From an uncultured Enterobacteriaceae bacterium (GTDB lineage Bacteria; Myxococcota_A; UBA9042), in the NCBI GenBank assembly GCA_964356325.1, contig CAYHHL010000008.1, forward strand, positions 342 through 56,193: DNA of 55,852 nucleotides, read 5' to 3'. The notes under the pieces are model-generated. The model saw only the letters and a list, made by a program, of their open reading frames with translations, was not told where the DNA came from and searched no databases. The position numbers were made by a program, and so were the translations under genes. Position 1 is the stretch's first letter; the number at the start of each line of letters is the position of its first letter. Shown one piece after another: positions 11,211 through 39,427 of this stretch.

Positions 11211-12594
11211 GGCCGCCAGCAGGCCGCAACAGATCTTGACCGGCCCTGAGGTCGCGGCGCAGCGTGGCGTTGCGCGGTTCGGACAGGCAGCGCTGGACCT
11301 CGGACGTATAGAAGATGCCTTCGCCAACCAGGCGCGGCTTGCCGTCATTCCATGCCAGCCAGCCGCGGTCGGTCAGGGCTTCCCACCAGGGTGCGAAATC
11401 TCGGGCCAGATCGCGGCCGAATTCCGCGGCATAGGCGCTGGAATCCAGGTACGGGCAACCCTCCAGACCCTTGAGCACGTAAATGAGCTGCAGGTCAATG
11501 GGCGCAAACGGGAACATCGCGTCGGCGCAACTGCCGCCTGCGACGATACGGGCGTGGTAGGAGTCCCGGCCGATGATGTTCTTGAACGTGTGGCCTGGGT
11601 TGGACGGCGTGCCGGAAAGCAGCGAATTGGCGCCGTAGCCGATGCCGACGCGGTCGTTGTGCAGGATGTCACGATACATTTCGAGGAATTGGACCGGCGC
11701 CAAGTCTGACCTGCAGTAGTCGGTGTAGCCATCGGCGCGGTAGCCGAGGTCGAGCATCGTCTCACGACCAGCCATGAAAGCGTCGCGAGTGACCTCGGTG
11801 CGGGGCAACTCATGCTTCCTGCGCGCGAATTCCGAGTCGCCGCCCAGCGTCAAAGGATGGTTGACGATGCCCGAGACGCCCCACTCGTGCAAAGTGCGGA
11901 TGTCGTCAACCACGTCCTGCGGGGTCTGTTCGAACCAGCCGGTAATGAGGTCGACCGAGCATTGAATCCCCCGTGCGCGGCAGAACTCGACGGTGCGCTG
12001 GATGTGCTCGCTGCGCTGGGTGCGGCCGCTGTACTTGATGAGGTGCGCCTTGAGGGTCTGGGCGCCGACGCTGATGCGGGTGACGCCCACCTCGGCGAGC
12101 GCTTCCAGGCGGCCCGGCGTGAACAGACCTGGCGTGCCCTCGAAGGTCGTTTCGCAGGCGGCTGGGATATCAAACGCGTCGTGCAGGCGGACGAACACCT
12201 CGCGGATGCTGGCCTCGTTGAGGATGTTCGGGGTCCCGCCGCCGAAATACAGCGTGCGCAGGGTCCGCCGCCCGAGCTGTGCCGCAACACAGTGCAATTC
12301 CGCATACAGGTCCGCGAGATAGGCCTCCACGTGCTGGTAAGAGTGGTAGTCCTCGCGCGCGAACAGGCAGAAGCCGCACGCCTCGGGGTCGGTCGGCGGA
12401 CAGAAAGGGATGTGCAGGTACAGGTTCAGCGGGCGCTGGACGTCGACGGGCGCAAGGAGCTCCGTCAGGGACGTTCGCCCCGGTCGCCAGAAGCGCGGCG
12501 ACGGGTGGCCGTACTGGATCTTGGTCCCGGGCTCGCGGCCGATATGTTCGTCCAAGTAGGCTGCCACGCTCGCAGAGGTCTGGGGAAGGAGCAT
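11107..12594 (-). CDS. HemN-like (class C RSMT / coproporphyrinogen oxidase family) radical SAM protein with atypical CX7CX2C motif
   Basis: LYLHIPFCPPTDPEACGFC, LYFGGGTP, GVTRISVGAQT, SVDLITGWFEQT and GIGYGANS are HemN-family motifs. Confidence 0.85.
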   Translation of the reverse strand: MLLPQTSASVAAYLDEHIGREPGTKIQYGHPSPRFWRPGRTSLTELLAPVDVQRPLNLYLHIPFCPPTDPEACGFCLFAREDYHSYQHVEAYLADLYAELHCVAAQLGRRTLRTLYFGGGTPNILNEASIREVFVRLHDAFDIPAACETTFEGTPGLFTPGRLEALAEVGVTRISVGAQTLKAHLIKYSGRTQRSEHIQRTVEFCRARGIQCSVDLITGWFEQTPQDVVDDIRTLHEWGVSGIVNHPLTLGGDSEFARRKHELPRTEVTRDAFMAGRETMLDLGYRADGYTDYCRSDLAPVQFLEMYRDILHNDRVGIGYGANSLLSGTPSNPGHTFKNIIGRDSYHARIVAGGSCADAMFPFAPIDLQLIYVLKGLEGCPYLDSSAYAAEFGRDLARDFAPWWEALTDRGWLAWNDGKPRLVGEGIFYTSEVQRCLSEPRNATLRRDLRAGQDLLRPAGGLSVGADRLQKSGSRALAGSGPSVRSDTPPPRVDE

Positions 12595-13421: not shown

Positions 13422-15535
13422 GACCCGTCTGCCGTCCCAGGGACGTCGGCAAGCCCCGAGTGTGCGGGATTCGGTTCCTGACGCTCGCCATCGCGCTGAC
13501 CTTGGCAGGTTGTTCGACGCAACCTGTCGGCGCCAAGCCCGATGCCCTCGACACTGGCGCCACCAAGCCCGATGCTCTCGACACTGGCGCCACCAAGCCC
13601 GATGCTCTCGACACTGCCGCCGCGGAGTTCCTCGATGCAGACCAGGGTTCGGGCGCGGCGGACAGTGACGTCGCCGCAGCCCCGCTGGACGTTTCTGCCG
13701 AGGTGACCGACGTGTCCGGCCCGACTGTCGACACGGACGGGCCGGCGCTTGCCGACGCGGCTGTAGCCACTGTGGTCGATGCCAGCGAAGGGAGCGATGC
13801 CGACAGCTTGGCCGATAGTCTCGACGTCGTGGATGCCGCGGGCACCGAGCCTGAGGTGGGCGATGCCGACGCCAGCGGCGACACCGCGACGGGCGACGAC
13901 GGCGGCGGCGTCGAATTGCCACCGGTGGCGCCCATCGATCCGACGACCCTGCCGCCGGCCGCCTTCACCGACGTCACGCTCGCCTACGGGATCGACCCTG
14001 GCAAGGCGCACAGCATCTGTGTGGCGGCCGCGGACCTCGACGGCAATGGCAGCGAAGACCTGGTCATGGTCGAACGCACGATGGGAAAAGCGAAAATCCA
14101 TGCCGTACTGCTCGGTGGCGCCAAGCCCGCGCACGTCTTGACACCATTCGACACGACGCTTCTGCTGCCGACGACCGGGTGTACGCTGGTCGACATGGAC
14201 AGTGACGGCACGCCTGACCTGCTCGTCGGTGGTCAGTCCGGCGCAGCACTGTACATGGGCGATGGCAAGGGCGGATTCGTCGACCAGAGTGCCAAGTGGT
14301 TGCCATTCATCATGGATTTCGAGTCATGGTCGCTGGCCCCGGTCGACCTCGATGGCGATGGAGATCTCGACCTGTTCATCGGCGCCGGCTCTCCATCGTT
14401 CGACGCCTCCAATCCGGGGCCGGGACCAGCGTGCGGCTCGGATGACTGCGGCTACAAAGGCACTGACTTCGTTTGCGCGCTGGTGACCAAGCTGCCCAAC
14501 GTCGGCCCTCTGCAAGATCGCGTGCTCATTCAGGGTGCCAAGCTGCCACTCGAGGATCAGACTCCATCGTGGAACGTGCCGCCAGCCGGCGTGCTCTCTG
14601 CGGGCCTGCCGGTCGACATCGACCTCGATGGCCTGATGGACGTCCTGGTCAGCGATGACTTCGGTGCGCACCGGCTTCTGCACAACGTGGGCGGTAGCTT
14701 CGAGGCCCACAGCGAAGACATTGGCTTCTACCCCTACGCGCACGGAATGGGCTGGGGCATGGGCGACTTCAACGGTGACGGCTTGGCCGACTTGATGCTC
14801 GCCGACGTCGGACCGTCGCCCTTGTACCTGCAAACCAAGGCGGGCCCGGGACTGCCGGTTTCGTTCGTCGACATGGGCGGCGCGCTCGGCGTGTGGGGAC
14901 CAGTCTGGAGCGCAAGTATCTGGTCGCCCATGGTGGCCGACTTCGATCTCGATGGAAACGAGGACATCATGGTGGGCGGCGCCTTGAACACCCTGCCCGC
15001 CGACCTGGCCAAGGTCACCATGGGCTGCTCCAAGAACGGCAGTGAACCCTATGCTGGCCATCCCAACATCGACCTGATTTTCTTGTCGGAGGGTGGCAAG
15101 GGCTTCAAGGCACAGCAGTTTCCCACCGGCCCGACCTCGCACTTCATGGCCATTGCCCAGGCCGTGGTCGACATCGACGGCGACGGTGATCTCGACGTGC
15201 TGCAGTCGCGCCCGAGCCTGAACCTGACCTCGCGCATCCGCCTATGGCGCAACGATTTGCCCAAGAAAGGCAATGGGTTCCGCGTGCTGGTCAAAGGCAA
15301 GAAGGGCAACCTCGATGCACTCGGGGCCGTCGTCACCGCCAAGATTGGCGGGCAACTGCGCACGCGGTGGTTGACAGGCACCGGCGGTTTTGGTGGAAAC
15401 CGCAGCCGGATCGCAGAGTTCGGATTGGGTCCAGCGACCAAGGCCACCGACGTCACGGTTTCGTGGCCCGATGGCAAGAAGACCTTGGTGGGCGAGGTGA
15501 TGGGCGGGGCGAGCAAATCGGTGACGTGGCCGTAG
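13418..15535 (+). CDS. CRTAC1 / ASPIC-UnbV family FG-GAP repeat lipoprotein (paralog 1)
   Basis: Lipobox LAGC, acidic linker, repeated DxDGDGDLD / GDFNGDG FG-GAP motifs, and C-terminal RLWRND...DALGA...FGLG...VSWPDG ASPIC/UnbV signature. Confidence 0.85.
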   Translation: MRPVCRPRDVGKPRVCGIRFLTLAIALTLAGCSTQPVGAKPDALDTGATKPDALDTGATKPDALDTAAAEFLDADQGSGAADSDVAAAPLDVSAEVTDVSGPTVDTDGPALADAAVATVVDASEGSDADSLADSLDVVDAAGTEPEVGDADASGDTATGDDGGGVELPPVAPIDPTTLPPAAFTDVTLAYGIDPGKAHSICVAAADLDGNGSEDLVMVERTMGKAKIHAVLLGGAKPAHVLTPFDTTLLLPTTGCTLVDMDSDGTPDLLVGGQSGAALYMGDGKGGFVDQSAKWLPFIMDFESWSLAPVDLDGDGDLDLFIGAGSPSFDASNPGPGPACGSDDCGYKGTDFVCALVTKLPNVGPLQDRVLIQGAKLPLEDQTPSWNVPPAGVLSAGLPVDIDLDGLMDVLVSDDFGAHRLLHNVGGSFEAHSEDIGFYPYAHGMGWGMGDFNGDGLADLMLADVGPSPLYLQTKAGPGLPVSFVDMGGALGVWGPVWSASIWSPMVADFDLDGNEDIMVGGALNTLPADLAKVTMGCSKNGSEPYAGHPNIDLIFLSEGGKGFKAQQFPTGPTSHFMAIAQAVVDIDGDGDLDVLQSRPSLNLTSRIRLWRNDLPKKGNGFRVLVKGKKGNLDALGAVVTAKIGGQLRTRWLTGTGGFGGNRSRIAEFGLGPATKATDVTVSWPDGKKTLVGEVMGGASKSVTWP
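13531..13620 (+). repeat. 30-bp tandem repeat x3 (TKPDALDTGA) in the linker of CRTAC1 paralog 1
   Basis: caccaagcccgatgctctcgacactggcgc repeated three times with 1-2 substitutions. Confidence 0.9.
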
Positions 15536-15557
15536 CCGTCCGCTTTGATTCTCGATC

Positions 15558-15604
15558 TCTGCCTGTATCCGCCTGTATCTATCTGAATCTGCCTGAATCT
15601 GCCT
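15558..15604. repeat. 10-bp tandem repeat (GCCTGWATCT) between convergent genes
   Basis: gcctgtatcc / gcctgtatct / atctgaatct / gcctgaatct / gcct. Confidence 0.75.
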
Positions 15605-17831
15605 ACTTCCAGACTGCGAACTTGGTGACGCCCGACACTACGTCGCCCAAGACCGTCGTGGTGCCATCGGGCCACACCACCGTCACGTCGGTCGCCTTGT
15701 CGCTGCTGCCCAGGCCGAAGTGCGCGAAGCGGCTTGGTGTTCCGCCCCAACCGCCGGTGCCGTTGAGCCAGCGAGTGCGCACCTGTCCGCCAATCTTGGC
15801 CTTGACCATGGTGCCCAGGGCGTCTTGGTTCTTGCCCTTGCCCTTGACCACGACTTGGATGCTTTTACCCTTCTTGACCAAGTCGTTGCGCAGAATACGT
15901 ATCCGCGAGATCGGCATCATCGTCGGGCCCGGGCGCGTTTGCACTACGTCCAAGTCGCCGTCGTCGTCGAGATCGATGAACCGCTGGTCGAGCAGCACGA
16001 CGTGGGAGTACTGCCCCGCAGGCATCGCCGAGGTCGTCATCGCCTTGCCCGCACCATGCAGGAACAGCACGTCGATGCTGGTCTCGCCGGCAAACGGGTT
16101 CACGCCCGGCTGGGCCCGGCTCTCGTTGCAAACAGTAGAGAAATCAGCGGCCTTCTCCGGCGAGAAGTTGACCGAGATGCCGAGTTGCAGATCGTCCAGG
16201 CCGTCATGGTCGAAGTCCGCGACCAGGGGCGCCCACTCGCTGGCTCCCCACGTCGGCCACCAGACCCCCAATTCGCCACCTTTGTCGATGAATTGCACCG
16301 GTTTTCCAGGCTTGGCCTTGGTCTGAATGTACATCGGCGTCGGCCCCGATTCCGCCAGGACGACATCGAACAGGCCATCGCCGTTGAAGTCGCCGATCCC
16401 CCAGCCCATCGCGCCGGCATAGCTGTGGAAGCCAATGTCGGTGTCGTAAGAGGTGAAGCTGCCGCCGTCATTGTGTAAAACGCGGTGGCCGCCCATGTCG
16501 TCGCCGACCAACATGTCCATCTTGCCGTCGCCGTCGACGTCGATGGCTTGGCTGACCGTCTGCGTGCCGCCCGGGGGCACCTTCCACGCCTTGGTCTGGT
16601 CGCTCAGCGGCAACTGGTTGCCCTGGATGAGCACCCGATCCTGCAACTGCGGCGTCAACTTCAACGGCGGGTCGACGGTACAGACCAGATCGCAACAGGT
16701 GAACTCGCACTGCAGGCTGGTGCAAGGCGGCGGGTCCATCCCAGCACCGACGAAGATGTCGAGATCGCCGTCGCCATCGAGATCGACCGGAGACACGCTA
16801 AATGCCGCAAAATCACTTACGTAAGGCATCCATGTTGCCGTGTCGTCGACGAAACCGCCGGCGCCGTCGCCGAGATAGACTCCCGCGCCCGAGTAGCCAC
16901 CGAACAGGAGATCTGGCTTGGCGTCGCCGTCCATATCCACGGCAGTACAGGCGAAGTTCGGTTGCATGACGGTGGTATCGAATTCCGAGAAGACGTGGGT
17001 AGGCGGGCCGGCGCCGAGCAGCACCGCGTGGATCTTGGCCTTGGTGCCGTTGCGTTCGACCACCACGAAGTCCTGACGGCCATTGCTGTCGAAGTCGGCG
17101 ACGGCGACACAGGCCTCGTGGTTCTTGGCCGGATCGATGCCCAGGGAAGTCGTGATGTCGGCGAAAGCAGCCAGCGGCAGGGTCGCCGGATTCACGGGCT
17201 TGCCGGTCACGGCGTCGGCAGTCGCATCGGGGGCCTGGATATCGGCAGGCGCGGCGACGTCGATGGCGTCCGGTTCCGCGGCAATATCGGTAACGTCGGC
17301 AGAGGCGGTCCCTACTTCGGCCGTGTCGAGATCGGCTGCGGCAACATCGGCAACATCGGCAACATCGGCAACATCGGCAACGTCGGCACCGGCGGTCCCG
17401 ACGTCGTCAACATCCGCTGCGTCGAGTTCGGCACTGTCCGCAACGACGGCGATGTCGGCCACGGTGGCCTGCGCGTCGGTAGTGTCCGGCACGTCCGCGC
17501 CGAGCTCGAAGCTGTCGCCCAACTCGTCCAACATGGACAGGTCCGCATCGCCGAGGCCGTCGGACGGGGCTGGTGCGCCATCTGCCACTGGTGGCGCCGC
17601 GTCGGCCAAGCTCGCGGTATTGTCAGCAGTCGCGTCGCTGACGTCTGCGGGCGCACTACCGTCGGGGACTTGCGTCGTTGTGCCGAGGGGCGCCACGACG
17701 GTATCGGAGTCGCCGGCCTGGCTGCCGGTGCATGCAGCGAGGCCGCACGCTGTCGTGGCCAGCGCCAGGATCCAACCGCGGAAACCGGCGGCATAGCAGC
17801 AAGACTTCAACGACGGAATTGTTGTTGCCAT
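15603..17831 (-). CDS. CRTAC1 / ASPIC-UnbV family FG-GAP repeat lipoprotein (paralog 2)
   Basis: GGAGA RBS before ATG 17831, lipobox LAAC, (ADV)n linker, FG-GAP repeats, and RILRND...HFGLG...VVWPDG. Confidence 0.85.
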   Translation of the reverse strand: MATTIPSLKSCCYAAGFRGWILALATTACGLAACTGSQAGDSDTVVAPLGTTTQVPDGSAPADVSDATADNTASLADAAPPVADGAPAPSDGLGDADLSMLDELGDSFELGADVPDTTDAQATVADIAVVADSAELDAADVDDVGTAGADVADVADVADVADVAAADLDTAEVGTASADVTDIAAEPDAIDVAAPADIQAPDATADAVTGKPVNPATLPLAAFADITTSLGIDPAKNHEACVAVADFDSNGRQDFVVVERNGTKAKIHAVLLGAGPPTHVFSEFDTTVMQPNFACTAVDMDGDAKPDLLFGGYSGAGVYLGDGAGGFVDDTATWMPYVSDFAAFSVSPVDLDGDGDLDIFVGAGMDPPPCTSLQCEFTCCDLVCTVDPPLKLTPQLQDRVLIQGNQLPLSDQTKAWKVPPGGTQTVSQAIDVDGDGKMDMLVGDDMGGHRVLHNDGGSFTSYDTDIGFHSYAGAMGWGIGDFNGDGLFDVVLAESGPTPMYIQTKAKPGKPVQFIDKGGELGVWWPTWGASEWAPLVADFDHDGLDDLQLGISVNFSPEKAADFSTVCNESRAQPGVNPFAGETSIDVLFLHGAGKAMTTSAMPAGQYSHVVLLDQRFIDLDDDGDLDVVQTRPGPTMMPISRIRILRNDLVKKGKSIQVVVKGKGKNQDALGTMVKAKIGGQVRTRWLNGTGGWGGTPSRFAHFGLGSSDKATDVTVVWPDGTTTVLGDVVSGVTKFAVWK

Positions 17832-17862
17832 TGATTTCTCCGTCATCAAGCGCCGATCTGGG

Positions 17863-19962
17863 TCACGGCCAAGCCACTGCCTTCGTCTCGCCGGCGCCCA
17901 CGTCGCCCACCTTGGTCTTGGCGCCATTGGGCCAGGTGATGGTCACGTCGGTCGCCTTGTCGGCGGTGCCAAGGCCAAAATGCGCGACGCGGCTTCGGGT
18001 TCCGCCAGTGCCACCCGTGCCGTTGAGCCAGCGCGTGCGCAAATGGCCGTCGATCTTGGCCGATACCACGGTGCCCAGGGCGTCGAGGTTACCCTTCTTG
18101 CCGGTGACTTTGACCAGGCAGCTCTTGCCCTTGTTGGGCACGTCGTTGCGCACGATGCGCACCATCGACGTCATGTTGACGTTGGGGCGGGTCTGCACGA
18201 GGTCGAGGTCGCCGTCGCCGTCCAGGTCGAGGACGCCCTGGGTCACCATTGCGAAATGCGAATACGGGCCGCTGGGAAACTGGTGCGCGGTAAAGGTCGA
18301 ACTGCTGCCGTTCGACAAGAACAGGACGTCCGGGTTGGGGTGGCCAGCATACGGCTTCTTCGGCGTACCCGTGCAACCGGCAGCGACTTTGGGGAATTCA
18401 GCCAGCGTGGTCGCAATCGAAATGCCGAGCATGATGTCGTCACGGCCATCCTGGTCGAAGTCGGCCACCAGCGGCGACCAACTGCTTGCGGCCCATGTCG
18501 GTCCCCAGACTCCACGCGCGCCGCCGTCGTCGATGAAACCGACTGGTTTACCTGAACTTGCCTTGACCTGCAGGTACAGCGGATTCGGCCCGGCGTCGGC
18601 CATGACCAGATCCGCCAGGCCGTCGCCGTTGAAGTCGCCGATGCCCCACCCCATGCCGTGGCCATAGGCGTGAAAGCCGATGTCTTCGCTGTGGGCCTCG
18701 AAGCTGCCGCCCAGGTTGCGCAGCAGGCGGTGGGCCCCGAAGTCGTCGCCCACCAGGACGTCCATCTTGCCGTCGGCGTCCACGTCCGCCGGCATGGCGT
18801 TGGACCAGATGCCGCCGGCGGGAACCTTCCAGGCCGTCGTGTCGTCGGTCATCGGCAGCTTGGCGCCTTGGATGAGAACGCGGTCCTGCAGTTCTTGCGG
18901 CGACTCTGGAAACGGCATCGCCATGGTGCAGATGAAGTCGGTGTCGTCATAATCGCAAGTCAGCGATCCGCAAGCAGGTCCGCCACCGTCGGGCGTGACC
19001 GGGGTGACACCGGCGCCCACGAAGATGTCGAGGTCGCCATCGCCGTCGAGATCGACCGGAGCCAGCGTCAATGTTGCGAAATCCATGATGAAGGGTAGCC
19101 ATTTGGCGCTCTGGTCGACGAACCCGCCCTTGCCGTCGCCCATGTAGAGCGCAGCGCCAGCGTGGCCACCGACCAGCAGGTCGAGTTTGCCGTCGCTGTC
19201 CATGTCGACCAGCGAGCACCCCGTCGTCGGCAAGAGCAGCGAGGTGTCGAACGGCGTGAACACGTGCTGGACCTTTGCGCCGCCGAGCAACACGGTGTGA
19301 ATCGTCGCCTTGGTCGTGTCCAGCTCGATGACGAGGAAGTCGTCCTGGGTGTTGCCGTCGATGTCGCCGATGCCGACGCAAGCACCGTGAATCTTCATGG
19401 GGTTGATAGCGAAGGCGGCAGTCACGTCGGTGAAAGGTGCGATCGGCAACGAGGTCGGATCCTGCGGGCCGATCTTCGGCGGCGCCGCGTCGACTTCGGC
19501 TGCCTTGCCTGAATCCTGGTCGCCAGCGTCGACTGCCACGGAGTCGGTATCGGCCGCAGCCTCGCTCGTCGTTTCCATGATATCGGGTACGTCGACAGCG
19601 TCTGCTGCATCCGACGACGCCACGTCGGCGCCGCCACCATCCGTATCGGCTTCTGAGGACTCAGCGGCATCCTCTTGAGCGTCTTCTTGCGAGATGTCAG
19701 GTAGTTCGCTCGCCAAGGCAGCGTCCAGTTCGTTCGTGTCCAGGTCACCCGCGTCCAAGTCGCTCGGGTCCAGATCACTCGCACCCAGGCCGGCGGCGTC
19801 CGCTTGCCCAGCCGTATCGACCGCGGCAACACCTTTTACCTCTAGCTCGGCAACGTCGGCCGTGGACAGCGCGCGGGCGCCCATCGCCGGTTCTGCCGCT
19901 GTCGAACACCCGGCGGCTTGGACCGCCGCGATCACGAGAGAGAGGCGCCAGCTTCGCGTCAC
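17863..19962 (-). CDS. CRTAC1 / ASPIC-UnbV family FG-GAP repeat lipoprotein (paralog 3)
   Basis: Lipobox AAGC, FG-GAP repeats, and RIVRND...HFGLG...ITWPNG. Long stretches are identical to paralog 1 (e.g. GAALYMGDGKGGFVDQSAKWLPFIMDF). GTG start inferred. Confidence 0.85.
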   Translation of the reverse strand: MTRSWRLSLVIAAVQAAGCSTAAEPAMGARALSTADVAELEVKGVAAVDTAGQADAAGLGASDLDPSDLDAGDLDTNELDAALASELPDISQEDAQEDAAESSEADTDGGGADVASSDAADAVDVPDIMETTSEAAADTDSVAVDAGDQDSGKAAEVDAAPPKIGPQDPTSLPIAPFTDVTAAFAINPMKIHGACVGIGDIDGNTQDDFLVIELDTTKATIHTVLLGGAKVQHVFTPFDTSLLLPTTGCSLVDMDSDGKLDLLVGGHAGAALYMGDGKGGFVDQSAKWLPFIMDFATLTLAPVDLDGDGDLDIFVGAGVTPVTPDGGGPACGSLTCDYDDTDFICTMAMPFPESPQELQDRVLIQGAKLPMTDDTTAWKVPAGGIWSNAMPADVDADGKMDVLVGDDFGAHRLLRNLGGSFEAHSEDIGFHAYGHGMGWGIGDFNGDGLADLVMADAGPNPLYLQVKASSGKPVGFIDDGGARGVWGPTWAASSWSPLVADFDQDGRDDIMLGISIATTLAEFPKVAAGCTGTPKKPYAGHPNPDVLFLSNGSSSTFTAHQFPSGPYSHFAMVTQGVLDLDGDGDLDLVQTRPNVNMTSMVRIVRNDVPNKGKSCLVKVTGKKGNLDALGTVVSAKIDGHLRTRWLNGTGGTGGTRSRVAHFGLGTADKATDVTITWPNGAKTKVGDVGAGETKAVAWP

Positions 19963-27774: not shown

Positions 27775-30700
27775 CTACGGCGCGACGGCCACGCGCGGTT
27801 GCTCGACGTAACGTATCGATACCATAGGTCGAAACGCCGGAACGCCGAAGCCGGGCCACAGGCCGAACGTCGACCCTGCGCTCAGGTAGAAGTCCGAGCC
27901 CAGTTCCAGGTTGAGCGCCAGACCCGCCTCCAACCGCTCGTTCGGGCCGTGCTGCAGCGGCGAGGTCAGGGGCGTCTCGTACGTCAGGCTCGCGTCCAGC
28001 CACCAGCCTTCAGGCCGCCACCAGTGCTTCCAATTGCCGCGCACTACCGAGGGGTTGAGGCTGCCCGCCGCGCCCAACCGCAGCGCCGGTCCGTCGGTCA
28101 CGTTGAACGCCTGCTGCTCGGCTTGGATGCGCACGCCGGCGTTCATCGCCACCCGCCACGGCCCGAACTGGGCGGAAGTCATCGCGGTCGGCGTCACCGT
28201 CGCGCCCGGCCGACCGGTGTAGTCGTCGGGCGATCCGGTCGGTAGCGTCAACGGCAGCATCGCCGCAACACCCCAACCTCCCGCGCGATCGGGCATCAGC
28301 ACCCACTTGGCCGCCAGCATCAAGTCGCCCACGGCGGTATTGCGGATGGGGCCCGACATCGGCCCGTACAGCGAAGGTCGCGAGCCGGTCTGGTAGAGCG
28401 CCAGCGGCAAGTACGCACCCAGAGTCAGGTTTCGCCAAACGCGCCACGCCGCGCCCAGATCCGCTTGCAGCCGGCCGTCGACGAGTGGCCGCACCACCGC
28501 GAGATCCGTGCCCACCACCAGCGGTCGGTACGCATACTGCGTTTGCACGGCGAAGGTCGGCGTCCCGAGTTCGATCTGCCGCGCTGCCTCGACGCCCAGC
28601 ATGCCCTGACCGTCCAGGTTCATGCGCATCCCGGTCACGTCCGGCGGCGTCAGTGCGAAGCCCAGCGCGGGCAACACCAGCATCGGCAGCACAAAAAAGA
28701 CCTTGAACATCGAAAACTTGCGCCGGCGCCCCAGCAACAGACCCACCGCGATCGCCAAAAGCCCCAGCACGCCTGGATCACGCCCCGAGGTCCCGCACGA
28801 AAGCGGCGTGGTGCCACGGATCTTCGCGCCCGGCTCCAGCACCTCCAAGTCGTCGCTCGGATCCAGAGGATTGGTCCCGGTTTGCAGCACTTCCACGTCG
28901 TCGGACAGCCCGCCGCCGTCCGTGTCCGCCAAACGCCAGTCCGTGTGCCACTTGTGCACCTCGTCCCCGTCCGCAAGCGTGTCGTCGTCGCTGTCCGTGT
29001 CGCGGTAGTCAGGCATCGTGTCGCCGTCGCTGTCCACGGGCACTTGCGGCACGATCGGCGCGTCGGGCAGCAAGCCAGCCTCGTCCTTGTCCGGCACCGT
29101 GTCGCCGTCGCTGTCCGTGTCCACCGCGTCGATCTGGCCGTCCGCGTCCGTGTCCAATGGGTGCGACAGATCGCCCAGTTCGGTCGGATCGCTCAGCCCA
29201 TCGCCGTCGGTGTCCGCGCTGTTCGGATTGGTCCCGAGTTTGATTTCCAGCGCGTTGGGCAGCGTGTCGTCGTCCAGATCGCCATTGATCGTGCCATCGT
29301 CGCCTTGCACCAGCGGATCCGTCTCGCCGACGTCGACACGCCCGTCGTGGCTGTAATCTTCCACGCCGTCGAGCATGCCGCCCCGATCGGTGTCCGCGAC
29401 CAAGGCAAACGTCGTGGTCGCAGGGTCCTTGTCCGCCCTGAATACGCCGGCTTTGGCATCGGTCGCATCGGGAAATGCCAGCGCCTCGCCAGTCAGCCCG
29501 CGTTCGGTGCCGTCGAACAACTGGTCGTCGTCGCTGTCCTCGTCCACCACACTCGCCAGTCCGTCACCGTCCTGATCGAACGCGAAGTCGTTCTCCTGAC
29601 CGTCCGCCACGCCGTCGTCATCGGTGTCGGCGTCCAGCTTCTGACTACCCAAGTGTGATTCTTCCCGATCGTTCAGGCCGTCGCCATCGCTGTCCGGCTC
29701 GGTCGAGACGCTGTCGGGCGCAAACGGATCGCTTTCGCCAGCGTCCACGTTGCCGTCGTGGTTGGCGTCCTCCCAGCCGTCGCGCTGCCCGTCGCCGTCG
29801 CTGTCCCGGCTGCGCGCGTACGTCCGGCTCAGCGGTTGCTGATCTGGCCGCAAGTTCGTCTCGGCATTCTTGATGTTGCCCAAAACCGGCTTGGTCGCGC
29901 CCAGTTCGGTGCCGTCACCCACGCCGTCATTGTCGCTGTCCGGGTCCAACGCGCCCGCCAGGCCGTCGCCGTCGCCATCGAACGCCGCGTCGGGCTCCAA
30001 GCCGTCGGCGATGCCGTCGTCGTCGCTGTCGGGATCCTTGGCATTGCTGCCCGCGCGATCCTCCTCGGTGTCGGCCAAGCCATCGCCGTCGCCGTCGACC
30101 ACCGCCGTCTGGCTCTCGGCACTGCGCGGATCGCCCTCACCTGCGTCGAACCTGCCATTGCCATTGACATCTTCCAGGCCATCGCGCTGTCCGTCGCCGT
30201 CCGAGTCCGCCACCAAGGGCGAAGTCGTCGTGACGGGTTCCAAGTCCGGCCAGAAGTTGCGCACCGCCAGCCTGGTCGCCGCGGTCGCCTGGCCTGCGCC
30301 GCGCTCCAATCCGTCGGGCAGACCATCGCCGTCGCTGTCCGGATCTGCAGCATTCACTGCACCATCGCGATCGGCGTCATGGCTCAGGTTCCACTCGGCG
30401 CCATCGGGTACGCCGTCGTCGTCGCTGTCGGCATCCTTGGCATCGGTTTGCAGGAACGCTTCCTCGGCATCGGGCAGGCCATCGCCATCGGCATCGGCCA
30501 GTGCAGGCCCCGCGGTGCCCTGGGTCGCGTCGGTCTCGCCCGCTTCCATCTTACCGTCATGATTCGGATCTTCGGCCCCATCTCGCCGCCCGTCGCCATC
30601 GCTGTCGCTGTTGTTCGGGTTGGACTTGCTCAGGTTGTCGGCGTCGGCGATGAAAGCCCGCGCCGCCAGGTCCGTGTCCGCGTCCAGCGTCGACAAGGTC

Positions 30701-33690
30701 CGGCCCAGTTCGGTGCCGTCGAACACGCCGTCGTTGTCGCTGTCCGGATCCAGCGCGTTGATCAGGCCGTCGCCATCGCCATCGGTGCTCAACTCGTCGC
30801 CGTCCAACACCGCGTCGTCGTCCGAATCGCGATCCAGCGGCTTGGTGCGCAGCTTCACTTCGAGACCGTCGCCCAGCCCGTCGCCGTCCGTGTCCGCCTT
30901 GACACGATCAGTGCCGAGCTTCAGTTCCTGGGCATCCGCCAAGCCGTCGCCGTCACTGTCCAAAGCCCGGTAGTCCGCTACACCGTCGCCGTTGCTGTCC
31001 GCGGGCTTGCTCGCCCAGTCCGCGTCGCCGGCCTCTTGCGCGTCGCTCCAGTCGTCGCCGTCGCTGTCGGTGTCCAACGCGTCGATGGTGCCGTCGCCGT
31101 CGGTATCAATCGCCTTGCCTTCCAATAACTTGCTGGCGTTGGTCTCGTCGCCATCCGAGATGGTGTCGCCGTCGCTGTCGGCATTCTTGGGATCGGTGCC
31201 CAGCGCCACCTCGACGCCGTTCTTGACCCCGTCGCCGTCGCCGTCGCCCGCCGCATCATCGCTCGGATCCAGCGGATTGCTCGCGTCGAACAGCACTTCC
31301 TGGCCATCCGCCGTGCCGCCCGCGTCGCTGTCCTTCAAGTTCGGGTCGGTCTCGCCGGCGCTCACCTTGCCGTCGTGGTTCTTATCCTCGGTGCTGTCGA
31401 ACAGGCCATCGCCGTCCGAGTCCTTTGCTAGCGGATTCGTGACACTTTTTGGATCGGCATCGCCCGCCTTGCCCAGTTCCAGGCCGTCGCCCAGGCCGTC
31501 GCCATCGCTGTCCGCCAGGCCGGGGTTGGTTTCGCTCGCCTGCACCTTGCCATCGTGGTTGGCGTCTTCGCTGCCGTCGCCCAAGCCGTCGCCGTCCGAG
31601 TCCAGCGCCACCGGGTTGGTCGTCGTCTTGGGTTCGGCGTCACCCTTGCCACCGGTCTCCAGCCCGTCCTGCAAGCCATCGGCATCACTGTCGATACTGA
31701 GCGGGTTGGTGCCGTGGAAATTCACCTCCAGCCCGTCGGTCAGCCCATCGCCGTCCGAATCGGCGTTGGCCGGGTCGGTCTCGCCAGCGGCCTTGTCCCA
31801 CTTGCCGTCATGGTTTTTGTCCTCCGCGCCGTCCGCCAGGCCATCGCCGTCGCTGTCGGCCTTCTTCGGATTGGGCTCGCCCGGGTCGGTGGTCCCGCTC
31901 TTGTTCTTGTCCTCGACGCCGTCGGGCACCTTGTCGCCGTCGGTATCCACCGCGTTCGGATCGCTGCCCGCGAACGGCGCCGCGCCCAAGTACTTGCCCA
32001 GCCACTCGATCTTGTCCGAAAGCCCGTCGCCGTCGCTGTCTTGCGCGCGCGGGTTGGTCCGGTTGGCGACGATCTTGCCGTCCTTGTCGACCTTGCTGAC
32101 CTTGTACTCCTCCAGGTTGCTCAGCCCGTCGCCGTCGTTGTCGAGCTTGCCGTCGGTCGGATCCAAGGGCTTGAGCGCCGCACCCTGGCCGGTTCCCTTC
32201 GAGTAGCTCACCTCCCACGCGTCATCCAGCCCGTCGCCGTCCGTGTCGGCCTTGCCCGGATCGGTCTCGCCCAGCAGCGGGTCCCACGCGCCGTTGTGGT
32301 TCTTGTCTTCCACGCCGTCCAACAGCGTGTCGCCATCGGTGTCGAACGCGAACGGATCGGTCAGCGTCGTCGGGTCCGTGTCCGACAGGTACGGCGGCGA
32401 CTGCGTGGCCAGCGGTTGCTTGGCGGAAACCTGCGGCTTGGTGAAGCCCTGCTCTTGGCCATCGCCCAACCCGTCGGCGTCGGTATCGAAGCGCACTGGC
32501 GACGTACCTCCCTGGACATGCTCGGGATTACCATCGACGCTGACGCCGCCTTCCTTGCCGTCCAGGATGCCGTCGTCGTCGGTATCGGCATCGTTCGGGT
32601 CGGTTTTCATGTGGTCGGCGAGCGGAAACACTTCCTGCGCGTCGCTCAGCCCATCGCCATCGCCGTCTGTGTCCTTCACCAAGGTCTTGCTGCTCTTGAG
32701 CTCGAAGTTGTCCGACAGCCCGTCATCGTCCTTGTCCTTGCCCTTGTCGTCGGCCGCTTCGTTCGGGTTGCTCGCGTCGAACACCTCCACCGGGTCCAGC
32801 ACGCCGCCGCCGTCGGTATCGGCCTTGAGCGCGTTGGTCTTGTATTTCAACACTTCGTCGGCGTCGGTCAGCGAGTCCCAGTCCGTGTCGGGCAGCAGCG
32901 GATCGGTCTTCCAGCTCAGGACTTCGTCGCCGTCGTTCAAGCCGTCGCCGTCCGTATCGGGCAGAAGTGGATTGGTCTTGTCCGCGATCTCCGCGCCGTC
33001 CTTCAAGCCATCGCCGTCGGTGTCCGGCTTGGCGGGGTCGGTCTTGTATTTCTTGACCTCGTCGCCATCGTTCAGCCCGTCGCCGTCGCTGTCCGTCGCC
33101 AGGCGGTCGGTCTTGTAGACGTTGGTCTCCTGCCAATCGGGCAGGCCGTCCTGGTCCGAGTCCTGCATATCGTCGTCGGGCTTGGTCGGATCCGTATGAT
33201 CGACCAGCACTTCCACGCCGTCATCGGAAAAGCCGTTGTCCGTGTCGACCTGCAGCGGGTTGGATTTGGTGACCTGCAGTTCGACGTTGTCCGGCAGTTG
33301 GTCGCCGTCGGTGTCCTTCAACGCCGGGTTGGTCTTGTACTTGTTGACCTCGTCGCCGTCGGGCAGGAAGTCGCCGTCGGTGTCGGCCTTGGTCGGATCG
33401 GTCGCGGCGATCCCGGGCTTGGGCTTCAGCTCCTGGCTGTCCGAAAGTGCGTCGCCGTCGGTGTCGGCCTTGCTAGGATCGGTCCCGGCCTGGAACTCCT
33501 GAAGATTGCTCAATCCCTCGCCGTCCGGATCACCCGCCGCGGTCTGCTTGAGGTTGCCGAAGTACGCGCCTTCCCAGGCGTCATCGAGACCGTCGAGGTC
33601 GCCGTCGCTCGCCTGGCCGGCCACGCTGAACAGCACCCCGGCGAGCAGGAAGAGGGTCGTGACACGGCGACGGCGCTGGGGCATGTGCAT
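27775..33690 (-). CDS. Giant Ca2+-binding DxDxDG (bacterial TSP3-like) repeat surface protein with internal MYXO-CTERM-like tag and C-terminal outer-membrane beta-barrel
   Basis: N-terminal signal peptide, then dozens of TDPxxxDTDGDGLxDGxE repeats. These are followed by SCGTSGRDPGVLGLLAIAVGLLLGRRRK, a second hydrophobic segment, and amphipathic strands (YAYRPLV, GDLMLAAKW, LTLPTG, PAFRPMVSIRY). Confidence 0.85.
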   Translation of the reverse strand: MHMPQRRRRVTTLFLLAGVLFSVAGQASDGDLDGLDDAWEGAYFGNLKQTAAGDPDGEGLSNLQEFQAGTDPSKADTDGDALSDSQELKPKPGIAATDPTKADTDGDFLPDGDEVNKYKTNPALKDTDGDQLPDNVELQVTKSNPLQVDTDNGFSDDGVEVLVDHTDPTKPDDDMQDSDQDGLPDWQETNVYKTDRLATDSDGDGLNDGDEVKKYKTDPAKPDTDGDGLKDGAEIADKTNPLLPDTDGDGLNDGDEVLSWKTDPLLPDTDWDSLTDADEVLKYKTNALKADTDGGGVLDPVEVFDASNPNEAADDKGKDKDDDGLSDNFELKSSKTLVKDTDGDGDGLSDAQEVFPLADHMKTDPNDADTDDDGILDGKEGGVSVDGNPEHVQGGTSPVRFDTDADGLGDGQEQGFTKPQVSAKQPLATQSPPYLSDTDPTTLTDPFAFDTDGDTLLDGVEDKNHNGAWDPLLGETDPGKADTDGDGLDDAWEVSYSKGTGQGAALKPLDPTDGKLDNDGDGLSNLEEYKVSKVDKDGKIVANRTNPRAQDSDGDGLSDKIEWLGKYLGAAPFAGSDPNAVDTDGDKVPDGVEDKNKSGTTDPGEPNPKKADSDGDGLADGAEDKNHDGKWDKAAGETDPANADSDGDGLTDGLEVNFHGTNPLSIDSDADGLQDGLETGGKGDAEPKTTTNPVALDSDGDGLGDGSEDANHDGKVQASETNPGLADSDGDGLGDGLELGKAGDADPKSVTNPLAKDSDGDGLFDSTEDKNHDGKVSAGETDPNLKDSDAGGTADGQEVLFDASNPLDPSDDAAGDGDGDGVKNGVEVALGTDPKNADSDGDTISDGDETNASKLLEGKAIDTDGDGTIDALDTDSDGDDWSDAQEAGDADWASKPADSNGDGVADYRALDSDGDGLADAQELKLGTDRVKADTDGDGLGDGLEVKLRTKPLDRDSDDDAVLDGDELSTDGDGDGLINALDPDSDNDGVFDGTELGRTLSTLDADTDLAARAFIADADNLSKSNPNNSDSDGDGRRDGAEDPNHDGKMEAGETDATQGTAGPALADADGDGLPDAEEAFLQTDAKDADSDDDGVPDGAEWNLSHDADRDGAVNAADPDSDGDGLPDGLERGAGQATAATRLAVRNFWPDLEPVTTTSPLVADSDGDGQRDGLEDVNGNGRFDAGEGDPRSAESQTAVVDGDGDGLADTEEDRAGSNAKDPDSDDDGIADGLEPDAAFDGDGDGLAGALDPDSDNDGVGDGTELGATKPVLGNIKNAETNLRPDQQPLSRTYARSRDSDGDGQRDGWEDANHDGNVDAGESDPFAPDSVSTEPDSDGDGLNDREESHLGSQKLDADTDDDGVADGQENDFAFDQDGDGLASVVDEDSDDDQLFDGTERGLTGEALAFPDATDAKAGVFRADKDPATTTFALVADTDRGGMLDGVEDYSHDGRVDVGETDPLVQGDDGTINGDLDDDTLPNALEIKLGTNPNSADTDGDGLSDPTELGDLSHPLDTDADGQIDAVDTDSDGDTVPDKDEAGLLPDAPIVPQVPVDSDGDTMPDYRDTDSDDDTLADGDEVHKWHTDWRLADTDGGGLSDDVEVLQTGTNPLDPSDDLEVLEPGAKIRGTTPLSCGTSGRDPGVLGLLAIAVGLLLGRRRKFSMFKVFFVLPMLVLPALGFALTPPDVTGMRMNLDGQGMLGVEAARQIELGTPTFAVQTQYAYRPLVVGTDLAVVRPLVDGRLQADLGAAWRVWRNLTLGAYLPLALYQTGSRPSLYGPMSGPIRNTAVGDLMLAAKWVLMPDRAGGWGVAAMLPLTLPTGSPDDYTGRPGATVTPTAMTSAQFGPWRVAMNAGVRIQAEQQAFNVTDGPALRLGAAGSLNPSVVRGNWKHWWRPEGWWLDASLTYETPLTSPLQHGPNERLEAGLALNLELGSDFYLSAGSTFGLWPGFGVPAFRPMVSIRYVEQPRVAVAP

Positions 33691-35715: not shown

Positions 35716-36144
35716 CTACCGTGTGGTGCCGCTATCCGCCAACGGGTTCTCCACGCGCACGCCGCGGAACCGACTGCCCGGCTGCAGATCTTCGGTCCAC
35801 AGTGCGTCGCAACCTGCCGCGATCGCCGCCGAAATCACCAGCGCGTCCCAGAACGAGATCCGATGCAGACGCTGCAGATCGATGGCTTCGAGCAGTAGAG
35901 GCACGGTGACCTGGACCACCTCCAAGGTCGCGAACAGCTCCACGTGGCGCCGTGCCACCGCGGCGTCCATGGCGTGCTTGCGCGTGACCACGCTGTAGAA
36001 TTCCTGCAGTACCTGGGTCGACAGCACCGCGGAACGGGTCGTCAGCGCGTCGGCCACGATCTGCCGGGCTCGCTCACCACGCGGACCGGCCGCCAGATCG
36101 ACTGCATATACCAAGACATTCGTGTCGAGAAACGGCCGACTCAC
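35716..36144 (-). CDS. vapC: PIN-domain toxin (VapC-like)
   Basis: FLDTNVLVYA, STQVLQEF, SFWDALVISAA and LWTEDLQ supply the four PIN acidic residues. Confidence 0.9.
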   Translation of the reverse strand: MSRPFLDTNVLVYAVDLAAGPRGERARQIVADALTTRSAVLSTQVLQEFYSVVTRKHAMDAAVARRHVELFATLEVVQVTVPLLLEAIDLQRLHRISFWDALVISAAIAAGCDALWTEDLQPGSRFRGVRVENPLADSGTTR

Positions 36145-36371
36145 GAGCGTCCCGCGTCATAGGCGTCGCCACGGCGGAACGGCTCACCGCTGCGGATGCC
36201 AGCGTTTGCAGCCAGTTCCAGGAATTCGGCCGCCACGTCGCCCCCCGCGTGCGTGCCGGCAAGTCGCTCGATCTGTTCGCGCATCCAGTCGTTCAGGCTG
36301 CGGCCTTGCTTTTGGGCGGCCAAGCGTGCGCGCCGGATGACCTCGTCGTCTGCCGTCAACGTCAGGTTCAT
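36141..36371 (-). CDS. vapB: Ribbon-helix-helix antitoxin (VapB-like)
   Basis: 76 aa, MNLTLTADDEVIRRARLAAQKQGRSLNDWMREQIERLA. 4-nt overlap with the toxin start. Confidence 0.8.
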   Translation of the reverse strand: MNLTLTADDEVIRRARLAAQKQGRSLNDWMREQIERLAGTHAGGDVAAEFLELAANAGIRSGEPFRRGDAYDAGRS

Positions 36372-36510
36372 GTTCTGCTCCGTGCGGGCACAGGTCCCGT
36401 GCACACAGCATGCGTGGTGTTTCCGTGCGCCACAAGTCGAAGAAGCGCTGGCAGCGAGATGGCCGTCTTCATGCCGGCAGCCTGACCCGGTCATACCAAC
36501 GCCGCCACAT

Positions 36511-37950: not shown

Positions 37951-37979
37951 TTGACACCGTACGGCCTGGGTGGTACTAG
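37951..37979 (+). promoter_or_regulatory. Putative sigma70-type promoter for the HxS peptide gene
   Basis: Perfect TTGACA, 17-nt spacer, then TGG-TACTAG (extended -10-like, weak -10). Confidence 0.4.
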
Positions 37980-38034
37980 CTGTAACGGGGATCTGCGTTA
38001 CTGCATGCCACTGACCCCCGGATGCAGAACGAGC

Positions 38035-38177
38035 CCCGGATACGACGTGCTCAGTTGAAGACGACCGGGCATCGGCCTAGGCGACAGTGCTCGGTGGATG
38101 ACAACAGGGCACGGCCGAAACGGCAGGCCAACGGGGTTCGACGTCGGTCGGACTTGAACGATTGAGCGTGTTCCGGG
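38035..38177 (+). ncRNA. Putative structured RNA / 5' leader (rod with branched apex), family unassigned
   Basis: Nested pairings: CCCGG/CCGGG; GACGUGCUCAGUUG(38044-57)/CGAUUGAGCGUGUU(38159-72); CGACCG/CGGUCG; GGCCU/AGGCC enclosing two hairpins. Confidence 0.4.
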
Positions 38178-38201
38178 ACGAATTGCCTCGATGGGGAAAC
38201 G

Positions 38202-38513
38202 ATGAAGAAAACGCTTCCGAAGTTGAAGAAGAACCCCGCGGACTTCCTTTCGGCCGAAGAGGGCGCGATCAGCGAGAAGCAGGAGGAGCGCGTCTCGACC
38301 TTCCTGACTCTTTCTGGCGCGGACGGCAGCGTGTTGCCTGGCGACCTGAACCTCTCCGCGGAGCACTGCAGCCACGGCTCGCACGGTTCGCACGGTTCGC
38401 ACGGTAGCCACGGTTCACACGGTAGCCACGGCTCGCACGGCAGTCACGGTTCGCACGGTAGCCACGGCTCGCACGGCAGCCACGGCTCGCACGGCTCGCA
38501 CGGCTCCTGGTAG
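38202..38513 (+). CDS. hxsA: His-Xaa-Ser repeat peptide (HxsA-like putative RiPP precursor): leader + HCS(HGS)15W
   Basis: GGGG RBS. Leader MKKTLPKLKKNPADFLSAEEGAIS, then 16 HxS triplets with shuffled synonymous codons. Confidence 0.8.
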   Translation: MKKTLPKLKKNPADFLSAEEGAISEKQEERVSTFLTLSGADGSVLPGDLNLSAEHCSHGSHGSHGSHGSHGSHGSHGSHGSHGSHGSHGSHGSHGSHGSHGSW

Positions 38514-38666
38514 TCGCGCGGCGGCGAGGCCCTGGCTTGCGGTGGAGTGCGCTTGGGCGCCTTCCTGCAGTGCGGCGATCCGCCTGAAATTCGCCAGCAT
38601 GCCCGGCTGATCCGAACCCCGCGGTCCGTCCAGCTTCGCCTCGCGCGCGGCCAAATTCAGCTGCGA

Positions 38667-39209
38667 TCAGCCCAATGGCCCCGGAGCCAGCTTGGCGCGC
38701 AGTCTGGCCAGCAGCCGCTGGTGTGCCCGGTGCAACTGGTCTTCGCTCCAGCGATCGCCGCCAGCCGCCAACTCCCGCATCGACCGGTCGCCCGCATAAA
38801 CGCCTTGCAACACGATGCGTTCGGCGCTCGACAGGTGCGGCGCCACAGACTCGATCGCGCGACCGATGTCCAGGCGGGTCGAAATCGAACCCACCGCGAC
38901 GTCGGCCTCCGACTTGCACTCCCGCAGGGCTTGCCGCGCCTTGTGCAACCGCGTTTCCCTGCGCAAGGCATCCAGCGCCCGCCCTTGCATCCGCGCGAAA
39001 GCAAAGGTGGTCAGCGGCCCGCGGCCATCCTCGTGGCGGCGCTGGCTCTCGCACAGACCGAGCAACGCCTCCGCCGCCAGTTCGCGACCGTCTGTTGCTC
39101 CGGAGCGATGCCGACCGCCGATCGCGCAGGCCAGTCGCAGCGCAGGGTTGGTGATCGCCATGTTCGGCAGCGCTCGGTCGTCCTGCTGCGGTTGGGTCAT
39201 CATCTTCAT
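38667..39209 (-). CDS. Minimal sigma-70 family factor (FliA/WhiG-like regions 2 and 4 only)
   Basis: AGGAG RBS. ELAAEALLGLCES...LTTFAFARMQGRALDALRR (region 2) and LSSAERIVLQGVY...SMRELA...HQRLLARLR (region 4). Confidence 0.7.
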   Translation of the reverse strand: MKMMTQPQQDDRALPNMAITNPALRLACAIGGRHRSGATDGRELAAEALLGLCESQRRHEDGRGPLTTFAFARMQGRALDALRRETRLHKARQALRECKSEADVAVGSISTRLDIGRAIESVAPHLSSAERIVLQGVYAGDRSMRELAAGGDRWSEDQLHRAHQRLLARLRAKLAPGPLG

Positions 39210-39427
39210 GCGGGGCTCCTGGTTTGCGGGTGGCACCATCTGGCGGGCGGTCCCAGGCTGATGCAAGCTGGCGTCCAGGTCGGCAACTTGTGACGATTCA
39301 GGATTGACCACGGCGGCTTGAGTCGCAAACCGTCAGGCGCGACATCACAGCGGTTCGAGGCCTCGCGGCCCCAGGTCCAGCCGCCCCAGCCCGCGGAGAC
39401 CACGCGGCTTCGGTGTGCGTCAAATCG

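Follow-up and report, generated by a model that had tools for sequence, protein, structure and literature searches.

The window, by which we mean the whole stretch of 55,852 nucleotides that was analysed, belongs to contig C8 of a 6.62-Mb assembly (464 contigs, 66% G+C) and contains the small ORF hxsA4, whose features are collected in Table 1. The translation of this ORF bears out the first-pass annotation, which had described a 54-aa leader followed by HCS(HGS)15W. The core uses CAC for each of its 16 His residues, GGC (8 codons) and GGT (7 codons) for Gly, and, for Ser, five different codons taken from both codon boxes (TCG 8, AGC 5, TCA 1, AGT 1, and TCC 1). Tandem Repeats Finder describes the DNA repeat as imperfect, with 74% matches at period 9 and 82% matches at period 18. 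The mixed codons and these figures establish that the repeat is perfect as protein and imperfect as DNA, in agreement with the earlier statement that it is held at the protein level and is not a DNA microsatellite. When all six frames of the assembly (6,618,183 bases) were searched for runs of at least three HxS motifs, the core of hxsA4 was the sole run obtained. Since no second ORF with HxS repeats was found there, hxsA4 is the only visible HxS substrate in the assembly.

Table 1. Positions of hxsA4 and of the associated features, numbered along the window
Feature	Position	Strand	Basis
Promoter-like site: TTGACA (37951-37956), 17-nt spacer ending TGG, TACTAG (37974-37979)	37951-37979	+	From sequence
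Extent of RNA-library contigs covering hxsA4	37993-38827	Not given by contigs	Metatranscriptomes
5' untranslated region, ~210 nt	37993-38201	+	RNA contig starts to ATG
Shine-Dalgarno-like GGGGA, 4 nt before ATG	38193-38197	+	From sequence
hxsA4 ORF, 103 aa	38202-38513	+	ATG start; leader, core, and TAG
Leader, 54 aa, with conserved block LPxLKK..ADFLS.EE..IS.KQ...VSTFL	38202-38363	+	Alignment of 22 copies, dN/dS
Core, HCS + (HGS)15 + W	38364-38510	+	16 H-x-S motifs
TAG stop codon	38511-38513	+	From sequence

Alignment of 22 HxsA4 copies revealed that P6, L16, E20, A53, H55, C56, S57, H58, and S60 are invariant and that F15, Q27, and L35 are almost invariant. Comparison of the leader with those of 11 relatives yielded dN/dS values of 0.05 to 0.40 at dS values of 0.69 to 1.44. 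The hxsA4 gene is real and is under purifying selection. Among the fetched loci, which come partly from the same genomes and from which three with a masked repeat region were left out, the core starts with HCSH[GA]S and ends with HGSW in 53 of 53 unmasked copies. These 53 copies contain 16 HxS units in 35 cases, 12 in 6, 15 in 5, 18 in 5, 17 in 1, and 23 in 1; a divergent copy with 58 units terminates in HGQW. As judged from the aligned copies, the repeat number and the end residues of HxsA4 are tightly constrained. Of note, three genera include one assembly with 12 HGS units versus 16 in congeners (L038, L039, and L041 versus L042 and L049-L051), and the 12-unit copies may represent a 36-nt assembly collapse rather than true variation.

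The NCBIfam profile NF038313 (HxsA4; cut-off of 55 bits) matches the ORF with 92.6 bits, over positions 2 to 93 of its 93 positions (E value of 2.1e-26), and recovers hxsA4 with 88.6 bits in a six-frame search of the genome. The ORF remains under the cut-offs of both HxsA3 (40.1 bits versus 65) and HxsA2 (19.8 bits versus 48), and the canonical HxsA model, TIGR03979 (cut-off of 121.65 bits), is absent among its matches at E values up to 10; the matches of TIGR03979 in the same genome (E values of 6e-7 or weaker) correspond to peptidoglycan-binding domains of other proteins. Pfam returned for the ORF a match to Collagen alone (34 bits for a gathering score of 27.2), which is compositional since Gly occupies each third residue, and no peptidoglycan-binding domain or signal peptide was detected in the ORF. 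On the strength of the profile match, we assign the ORF as a full-length member of the HxsA4 family, that is, as a catalogued and unstudied peptide. The family itself exists as an annotation model only, and a literature search found no publication naming HxsA4, HxsC4, or HGSHGS. The term "orphan" used in the first-pass annotation is not supported if it is meant to designate an unknown or isolated peptide, given the full-length match to NF038313 and the presence of HxsA4 in 51 of the 61 genomes sampled in the class to which the window belongs. By their record titles, related contigs that carry hxsA4 belong to metagenome-assembled genomes (MAGs) of uncultured Myxococcales or Myxococcota. Five MAG records with a Myxococcota-type hxsA4 locus (L072, L075, L079, L083, and L084) bear the name Klebsiella pneumoniae or that of an uncultured Enterobacteriaceae, and these labels look wrong for the contigs in question.

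Upstream of hxsA4, the hexamers TTGACA and TACTAG read as a -35 box and an extended -10 box, respectively. Among 30 distinct upstream regions from relatives, 16 contain the pattern TTGACA-N14-TG-N-TA at 174 to 269 nt before the ATG, for a chance expectation of 0.015 per 270 nt. A promoter and terminator consensus scan returned neither promoters nor terminators, and it passed over TACTAG because its rule demands that the second hexamer end in T. The first RNA contig starts 14 bases after the end of TACTAG. In three lake metatranscriptome samples of one study, hxsA4 is covered with 0 mismatches by a single 835-nt contig (run X1, 37993-38827), by two contigs (run X2, 38001-38489 and 38466-38804), and by one contig (run X3, 38006-38790), and a run from a second study (X4) covers 38375-38551, again with 0 mismatches; these RNA contigs give neither strand nor level, and carried-over DNA is possible. 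Within the window, no RNA cover beyond 37993-38827 was seen in the four runs. By their common ends, the contigs fit a discrete, monocistronic unit of about 0.8 kb, in line with the earlier proposal that the peptide forms its own transcription unit, which is bounded in the same way in three samples. Evidence of transcription, which had been named as a check on the reality of the gene, is thus at hand from RNA libraries of four runs and two studies.

The RNA contigs extend 120 to 160 nt into the 3' end of a convergent sigma-70-like gene (38667-39239, minus strand), to the end of which they would be antisense if they derive from plus-strand transcripts. The 5' untranslated region had no match in Rfam at E values up to 10 and is not alignable among relatives, except at one locus over the 46 nt nearest the promoter; a riboswitch was rejected on the basis of the missing Rfam match and of this lack of sequence conservation. 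GGGGA or GGGGC is positioned at an equal distance from the ATG in most relatives.

The sole radical SAM gene of the window (11110-12594, minus strand, 495 aa), absent from the first-pass annotation, has STM4012-family, HemW, and HemZ-like proteins as its best families, all under cut-off (150.7 of 380), and was rejected as a peptide maturase for being HemN/HemW-like. Immediately past the HD-domain gene next to hxsA4 lies a gene for a PIN-domain protein of 142 aa, which shares 4 nt with the ORF upstream of it (87 aa, no family match; 35716-36404, minus strand), and the two resemble a toxin-antitoxin module of the VapBC type. Three regions of the window (2-6238, 13460-19884, and 27775-33690) encode very large repeat proteins, one of 2078 aa with Dicty_CTDC repeats and one of 1971 aa with bacterial TSP3 repeats, as well as three paralogous FG-GAP/ASPIC proteins of 673 to 735 aa.

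Profile searches for HxsB, HxsC, HxsD, HxsD_rel, and HxsC4 came back empty for the 56-kb window, as had been noted before, and also for the whole of contig C8. Elsewhere in the genome, two HxsB proteins exceed the cut-off of 370 bits, one encoded on contig C13 (510 bits) and one on contig C29 (508 bits), where the gene adjoins another radical-SAM-like gene. The HxsB gene of contig C13 belongs to a cluster carried on one strand and composed of three HxsC-like radical SAM genes, an HxsD-like gene (41.2 bits, just short of the cut-off of 50), HxsD_rel (68.6 bits, cut-off of 41), HxsB, which is of the SPASM class of radical SAM enzymes, and then two unannotated genes. The best named families of the three radical SAM genes are HxsC/HxsC4, with 39 to 99 bits, all under cut-off. 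No protein of the genome reaches the cut-off of HxsC (105.6 bits at best versus 267.9) or that of HxsC4 (NF038332; 146.8 bits at best versus 500, at C29:33783-34463). As read from these profile matches, the genome has each of the four types of Hxs component, the precursor being on a separate contig. An absence of HxsB/C-like enzymes from the genome, which the first-pass annotation had named as an argument against a RiPP, is the opposite of what we observed, with two HxsB proteins over cut-off and HxsC-like and HxsD-like proteins outside contig C8.

The AF2 model of HxsD_rel (pLDDT of 89.9) displays a beta-alpha-beta-beta-alpha succession; Foldseek found no match to it in the PDB at an E value of 0.001 or better, and the best Z score obtained with VIA-align, 7.9, is within background. 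The modelled fold of HxsD_rel is a common alpha/beta arrangement. The HxsD-like protein had no match among PDB sequences at E values up to 1. The two genes that follow HxsB on contig C13 (L023 12411-13870; C13 48410-49869) are paralogous and encode proteins of 247 and 206 aa without a family match, both of which end in an aromatic-rich stretch (...YSW and ...YNW). They also occur after the cluster in three relatives from the same family as the window, hereafter f1 (L096, L102, and L103), and might correspond to outer-membrane proteins tied to the Hxs system.

To describe the distribution of these genes, 201 evenly drawn Myxococcota genomes were cross-tabulated by hand, with E-value thresholds of 1e-12 or better for HxsA4 and 1e-60 or better for HxsB. 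HxsA4 was found in 66 of the 201 genomes, 64 of which also have HxsB and 63 HxsD_rel, and HxsB was found in 12 of the 135 genomes without HxsA4; these co-occurrence counts, which overstate the support given the shared descent of genomes within a lineage, and the adjacency counts that follow describe a pattern and are not a statistic. Four of the 12 genomes are f1 assemblies with fragmentary HxsA4 matches, located at contig ends or in split frames. Of the 32 genomes outside the class of the window that have both genes, 20 carry hxsA4 downstream of hxsB at a distance of at most 500 nt, and the gene order at these linked loci is usually HxsD_rel-HxsB-HxsA4. Inside the class, hxsA4 is directly downstream of HxsB in 3 of 32 genomes of the same sample (G037, G043, and G045), and the separate class sample of 61 genomes gave adjacency in 6 of the 50 genomes with both. 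Within f1, the two genes are neither adjacent nor on the same contig in any of 31 genomes. In the one-contig genome G071, hxsA4 is 3.1 Mb away from HxsD_rel-HxsB. Two genomes (G046 and G041) have hxsA4 at the head of a multi-radical-SAM cluster and HxsB elsewhere, and the cluster of G046 holds a true HxsC4 (545 bits). As precursor and maturase genes usually lie together in the rest of the phylum, their linkage is customary for the system and is not a criterion of the HMM family. The orphan state of hxsA4 is itself a lineage-wide habit and no anomaly.

In f1, hxsA4 is located between a divergent gene for an HD-domain, CCA-transferase-like protein and the convergent sigma-70-like gene. Searches with tblastn identified the HD/CCA-like gene at 14 of 16 f1 loci and the sigma-70-like gene at 12 of 16, and found neither gene at any of 10 non-f1 hxsA4 loci. 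In genome G020, the whole frame is that of the window, with a FAD protein, HD, hxsA4, sigma, an L,D-transpeptidase, and a Ser/Thr kinase. The cluster found on contig C13 is similarly stable, as a run of rSAM1-3, D-like, D_rel, and HxsB recurs in six f1 relatives, with lgt and lspA as frequent neighbors, and the precursor is never there. With its stable address and a stable maturase cluster, hxsA4 looks like a gene that was relocated long ago and has been inherited vertically since, and unlike a mobile cassette.

In a maximum-likelihood tree of 20 HxsB sequences, rooted at its midpoint, the C13-type HxsBs (with D genes) and the C29-type HxsBs (without D genes) form sister clades (support of 95/92), and the precursor-adjacent HxsBs of other families are placed outside these two clades. 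Its position makes the C13 HxsB the successor of the ancestral gene that adjoined the precursor. Genus g5 (G020) has a cluster of rSAM1-3, D-like, and D_rel that lacks HxsB (L103, contig C9), its sole HxsB is of the C29 type (L104, contig C7), and hxsA4 is kept at its usual address. Since the cluster lost HxsB while hxsA4 was kept, the C13-type HxsB is dispensable in g5 or replaced by its paralogue. The C29-type HxsB has apparently taken over in this genus, and we suggest that either paralogue may serve HxsA4 as a candidate maturase.

Based on these results, we propose that the ORF is hxsA4 and that radical SAM enzymes of the Hxs type, encoded elsewhere, probably act in trans to modify the precursor that it specifies. 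According to this proposal, hxsA4 would give a transcript by itself, driven by a strong sigma-70-type promoter of its own, and its product would be modified post-translationally by enzymes for which the C13 cluster is the main candidate locus, the C29 HxsB paralogue adding to the C13 copy or replacing it. The 54-aa leader could dock the peptide on HxsB and/or on HxsD-type proteins, after which either the H-x-S units or the invariant HCS that opens the core could be the target of radical chemistry. The likeliest first step of the reaction would be the abstraction of hydrogen from a side-chain carbon, and its likeliest outcome His-to-Ser or Cys-based cross-links. Both HxsB proteins score 39 to 63 bits against the cyclophane synthase families XyeB, GrrM, YhhB, and AmcB, the cut-offs of which range from 310 to 450; since HxsB falls outside these families, the poly-crosslinked product envisaged by the first-pass annotation is still to be regarded as hypothetical.

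The first-pass annotation had offered two readings of the peptide, a trans-matured RiPP and an unmodified metal binder. In the second, a His-rich peptide would bind or buffer Ni, Zn, Cu, or Co through its 16 imidazoles, and the Hxs enzymes would serve another substrate. Such a peptide would match the extremely His-rich composition and would explain why no Hxs enzyme gene lies within 56 kb, why hxsA4 and HxsB are linked in 0 of 31 f1 genomes, and why g5 keeps the peptide after the loss of the C13-type HxsB; however, it would leave unexplained that HxsB accompanies HxsA4 in 64 of 66 carriers and that 23 genomes in the phylum sample have hxsA4 immediately after HxsB. Moreover, the genome has no other HxS-repeat substrate on which the enzymes might act, and a selected 54-aa leader with an invariant junction, A-x-HCSH, would be superfluous for a simple metal sponge. 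We consider the unmodified peptide improbable, and we favor maturation in trans given the HxsB genes found elsewhere in the genome and the position of HxsA4 directly after HxsB in relatives.

If HxsA4 is indeed matured in trans, its role also deserves comment. No signal peptide was detected, the surroundings of the hxsA4 locus and of the C13 locus showed no gene for a protease or an exporter, the neighbors are housekeeping genes, and the distribution is near universal and syntenic. For these reasons, we lean weakly toward a role that is cell-own and vertically inherited, for instance the binding of metal or of a polyanion by a rigid poly-imidazole, over a mobile defence cassette. A more far-reaching version, which we advance tentatively and hold to be unlikely as a whole, discards both defence and secretion as an antibiotic and casts HxsA4 as a housekeeping peptide of fixed length, with 16 units in at least 10 f1 genera, that is vertically inherited and strongly transcribed and from which two or three scattered radical SAM loci would make a rigid poly-imidazole cofactor, of ribosomal origin, that binds metal or polyanions. 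If this version is true, the precursor gene is now a separately regulated member of a regulon.

Defence is the role suggested by E. coli HxsA, an HXS-type antiphage effector that is matured by HxsB/C/D, exported, and blocks phage DNA entry in the periplasm. The genome contains the same enzyme families (HxsB over cut-off, HxsD-like and HxsC-like proteins), and the E. coli system requires radical SAM maturation of an HxS-repeat protein (PMC13128918). Nevertheless, an antiphage effector of this type has little probability here, because the ORF lacks a TIGR03979 match, a peptidoglycan-binding domain, and a signal peptide, and because near-universal presence in the class and fixed synteny in f1 fit vertical inheritance better than a defence island. 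Housekeeping genes are neighbors at both loci (lgt, lspA, uppS, and cdsA, according to our reading of the sequence, and the CCA-like gene), and PADLOC returned only generic viperin-core matches, to radical SAM domains alone. Finally, a structural peptide of the collagen type, (Gly-X-Y)n, or a DNA microsatellite without coding function that is read as an ORF by chance, may come to mind in view of the Pfam Collagen score (34 bits versus 27.2) and of periods 9 and 18 in Tandem Repeats Finder, but is highly improbable since the leader, the start codon, the Shine-Dalgarno site, HCS, and the final Trp are kept across genera at dS values of 0.7 to 1.4, the DNA repeat is imperfect whereas the protein repeat is perfect, and the Collagen match arises from Gly spacing alone.

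The new elements of this study are the family-wide separation of hxsA4 from the enzymes, the second HxsB paralogue with its apparent take-over in g5, the conserved promoter with RNA support, and the conservation of 16 units. As the substrate gene stands permanently apart from the enzymes in the freshwater Myxococcota family f1, genome mining based on gene clusters would miss either half of the system. The 16-unit substrate also constitutes a convenient handle on HxsB chemistry.

His-Xaa-Ser systems were predicted bioinformatically long ago. The "type 4" system of NCBIfam, HxsA4/HxsC4/HxsD_rel (NF038313, NF038332, and NF038315), is annotation only; our peptide shares with it a full HMM match, the same leader, and the HCSH...HGSW core, and the genome has an HxsD_rel over cut-off adjoining HxsB. 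The differences are that hxsA4 stands alone here, off every maturase contig, and that HxsC4 is under cut-off. The HXS antiphage system HxsD-HxsB-HxsC-HxsA has been described by Li et al. (Nat Commun 2026, PMC13128918), who report 99.6% D-B-C-A operons and 99.7% occurrence in Pseudomonadota. According to the same article, radical SAM maturation of the HxS-repeat protein is needed in E. coli, with each repeat required, and HxsA undergoes a +8-Da change on SHRSS of which the chemistry is unsolved (PMC13128918). The block of phage DNA entry is, as of 2026, the first function for His-Xaa-Ser systems. Like canonical HXS (TIGR03979 with TIGR03976-8), the system studied here has an HxsB that matches at the equivalog level (510 bits), HxsD-like and HxsC-like partners, and an H-x-S substrate. 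Unlike canonical HxsA, HxsA4 is a protein of 103 aa that lacks a peptidoglycan-binding domain, bears no charge in its 16 HGS units, has an invariant Cys, and ends with Trp; and unlike the canonical operon, hxsA4 is unlinked, HxsC is under cut-off, and the system belongs to Myxococcota, where it is near universal in the class.

A chemical precedent for H-G-S is provided by the triceptide synthases HaaB, HtkB, and YhhB, which connect C2 of His1 to the C-beta of residue 3 in the H-x-x motifs HAA, HTK, and HNR (PMC11499958). As in triceptides, H occupies position 1 of a three-residue unit in the 16 H-x-S units of HxsA4. HxsB itself is unlike the triceptide synthases (62.7 bits versus 445 for YhhB, 39.2 versus 450 for XyeB, and 50.7 versus 425 for AmcB). 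The nearest solved structures, obtained by comparing the HxsB profile with PDB sequences, are 5wgg (E value of 7e-33) and anSME (4k36, E value of 5e-20). The radical SAM/SPASM protein of 5wgg/5why is the thioether-forming SCIFF maturase CteB, and anSME is an anaerobic sulfatase-maturating enzyme. These distant relatives act on Cys-rich peptides or on a sulfatase Ser/Cys, unlike the His-x-Ser arrays of HxsA4, and they have in common with the activity that we propose for HxsB an attack on a side-chain carbon of a peptide.
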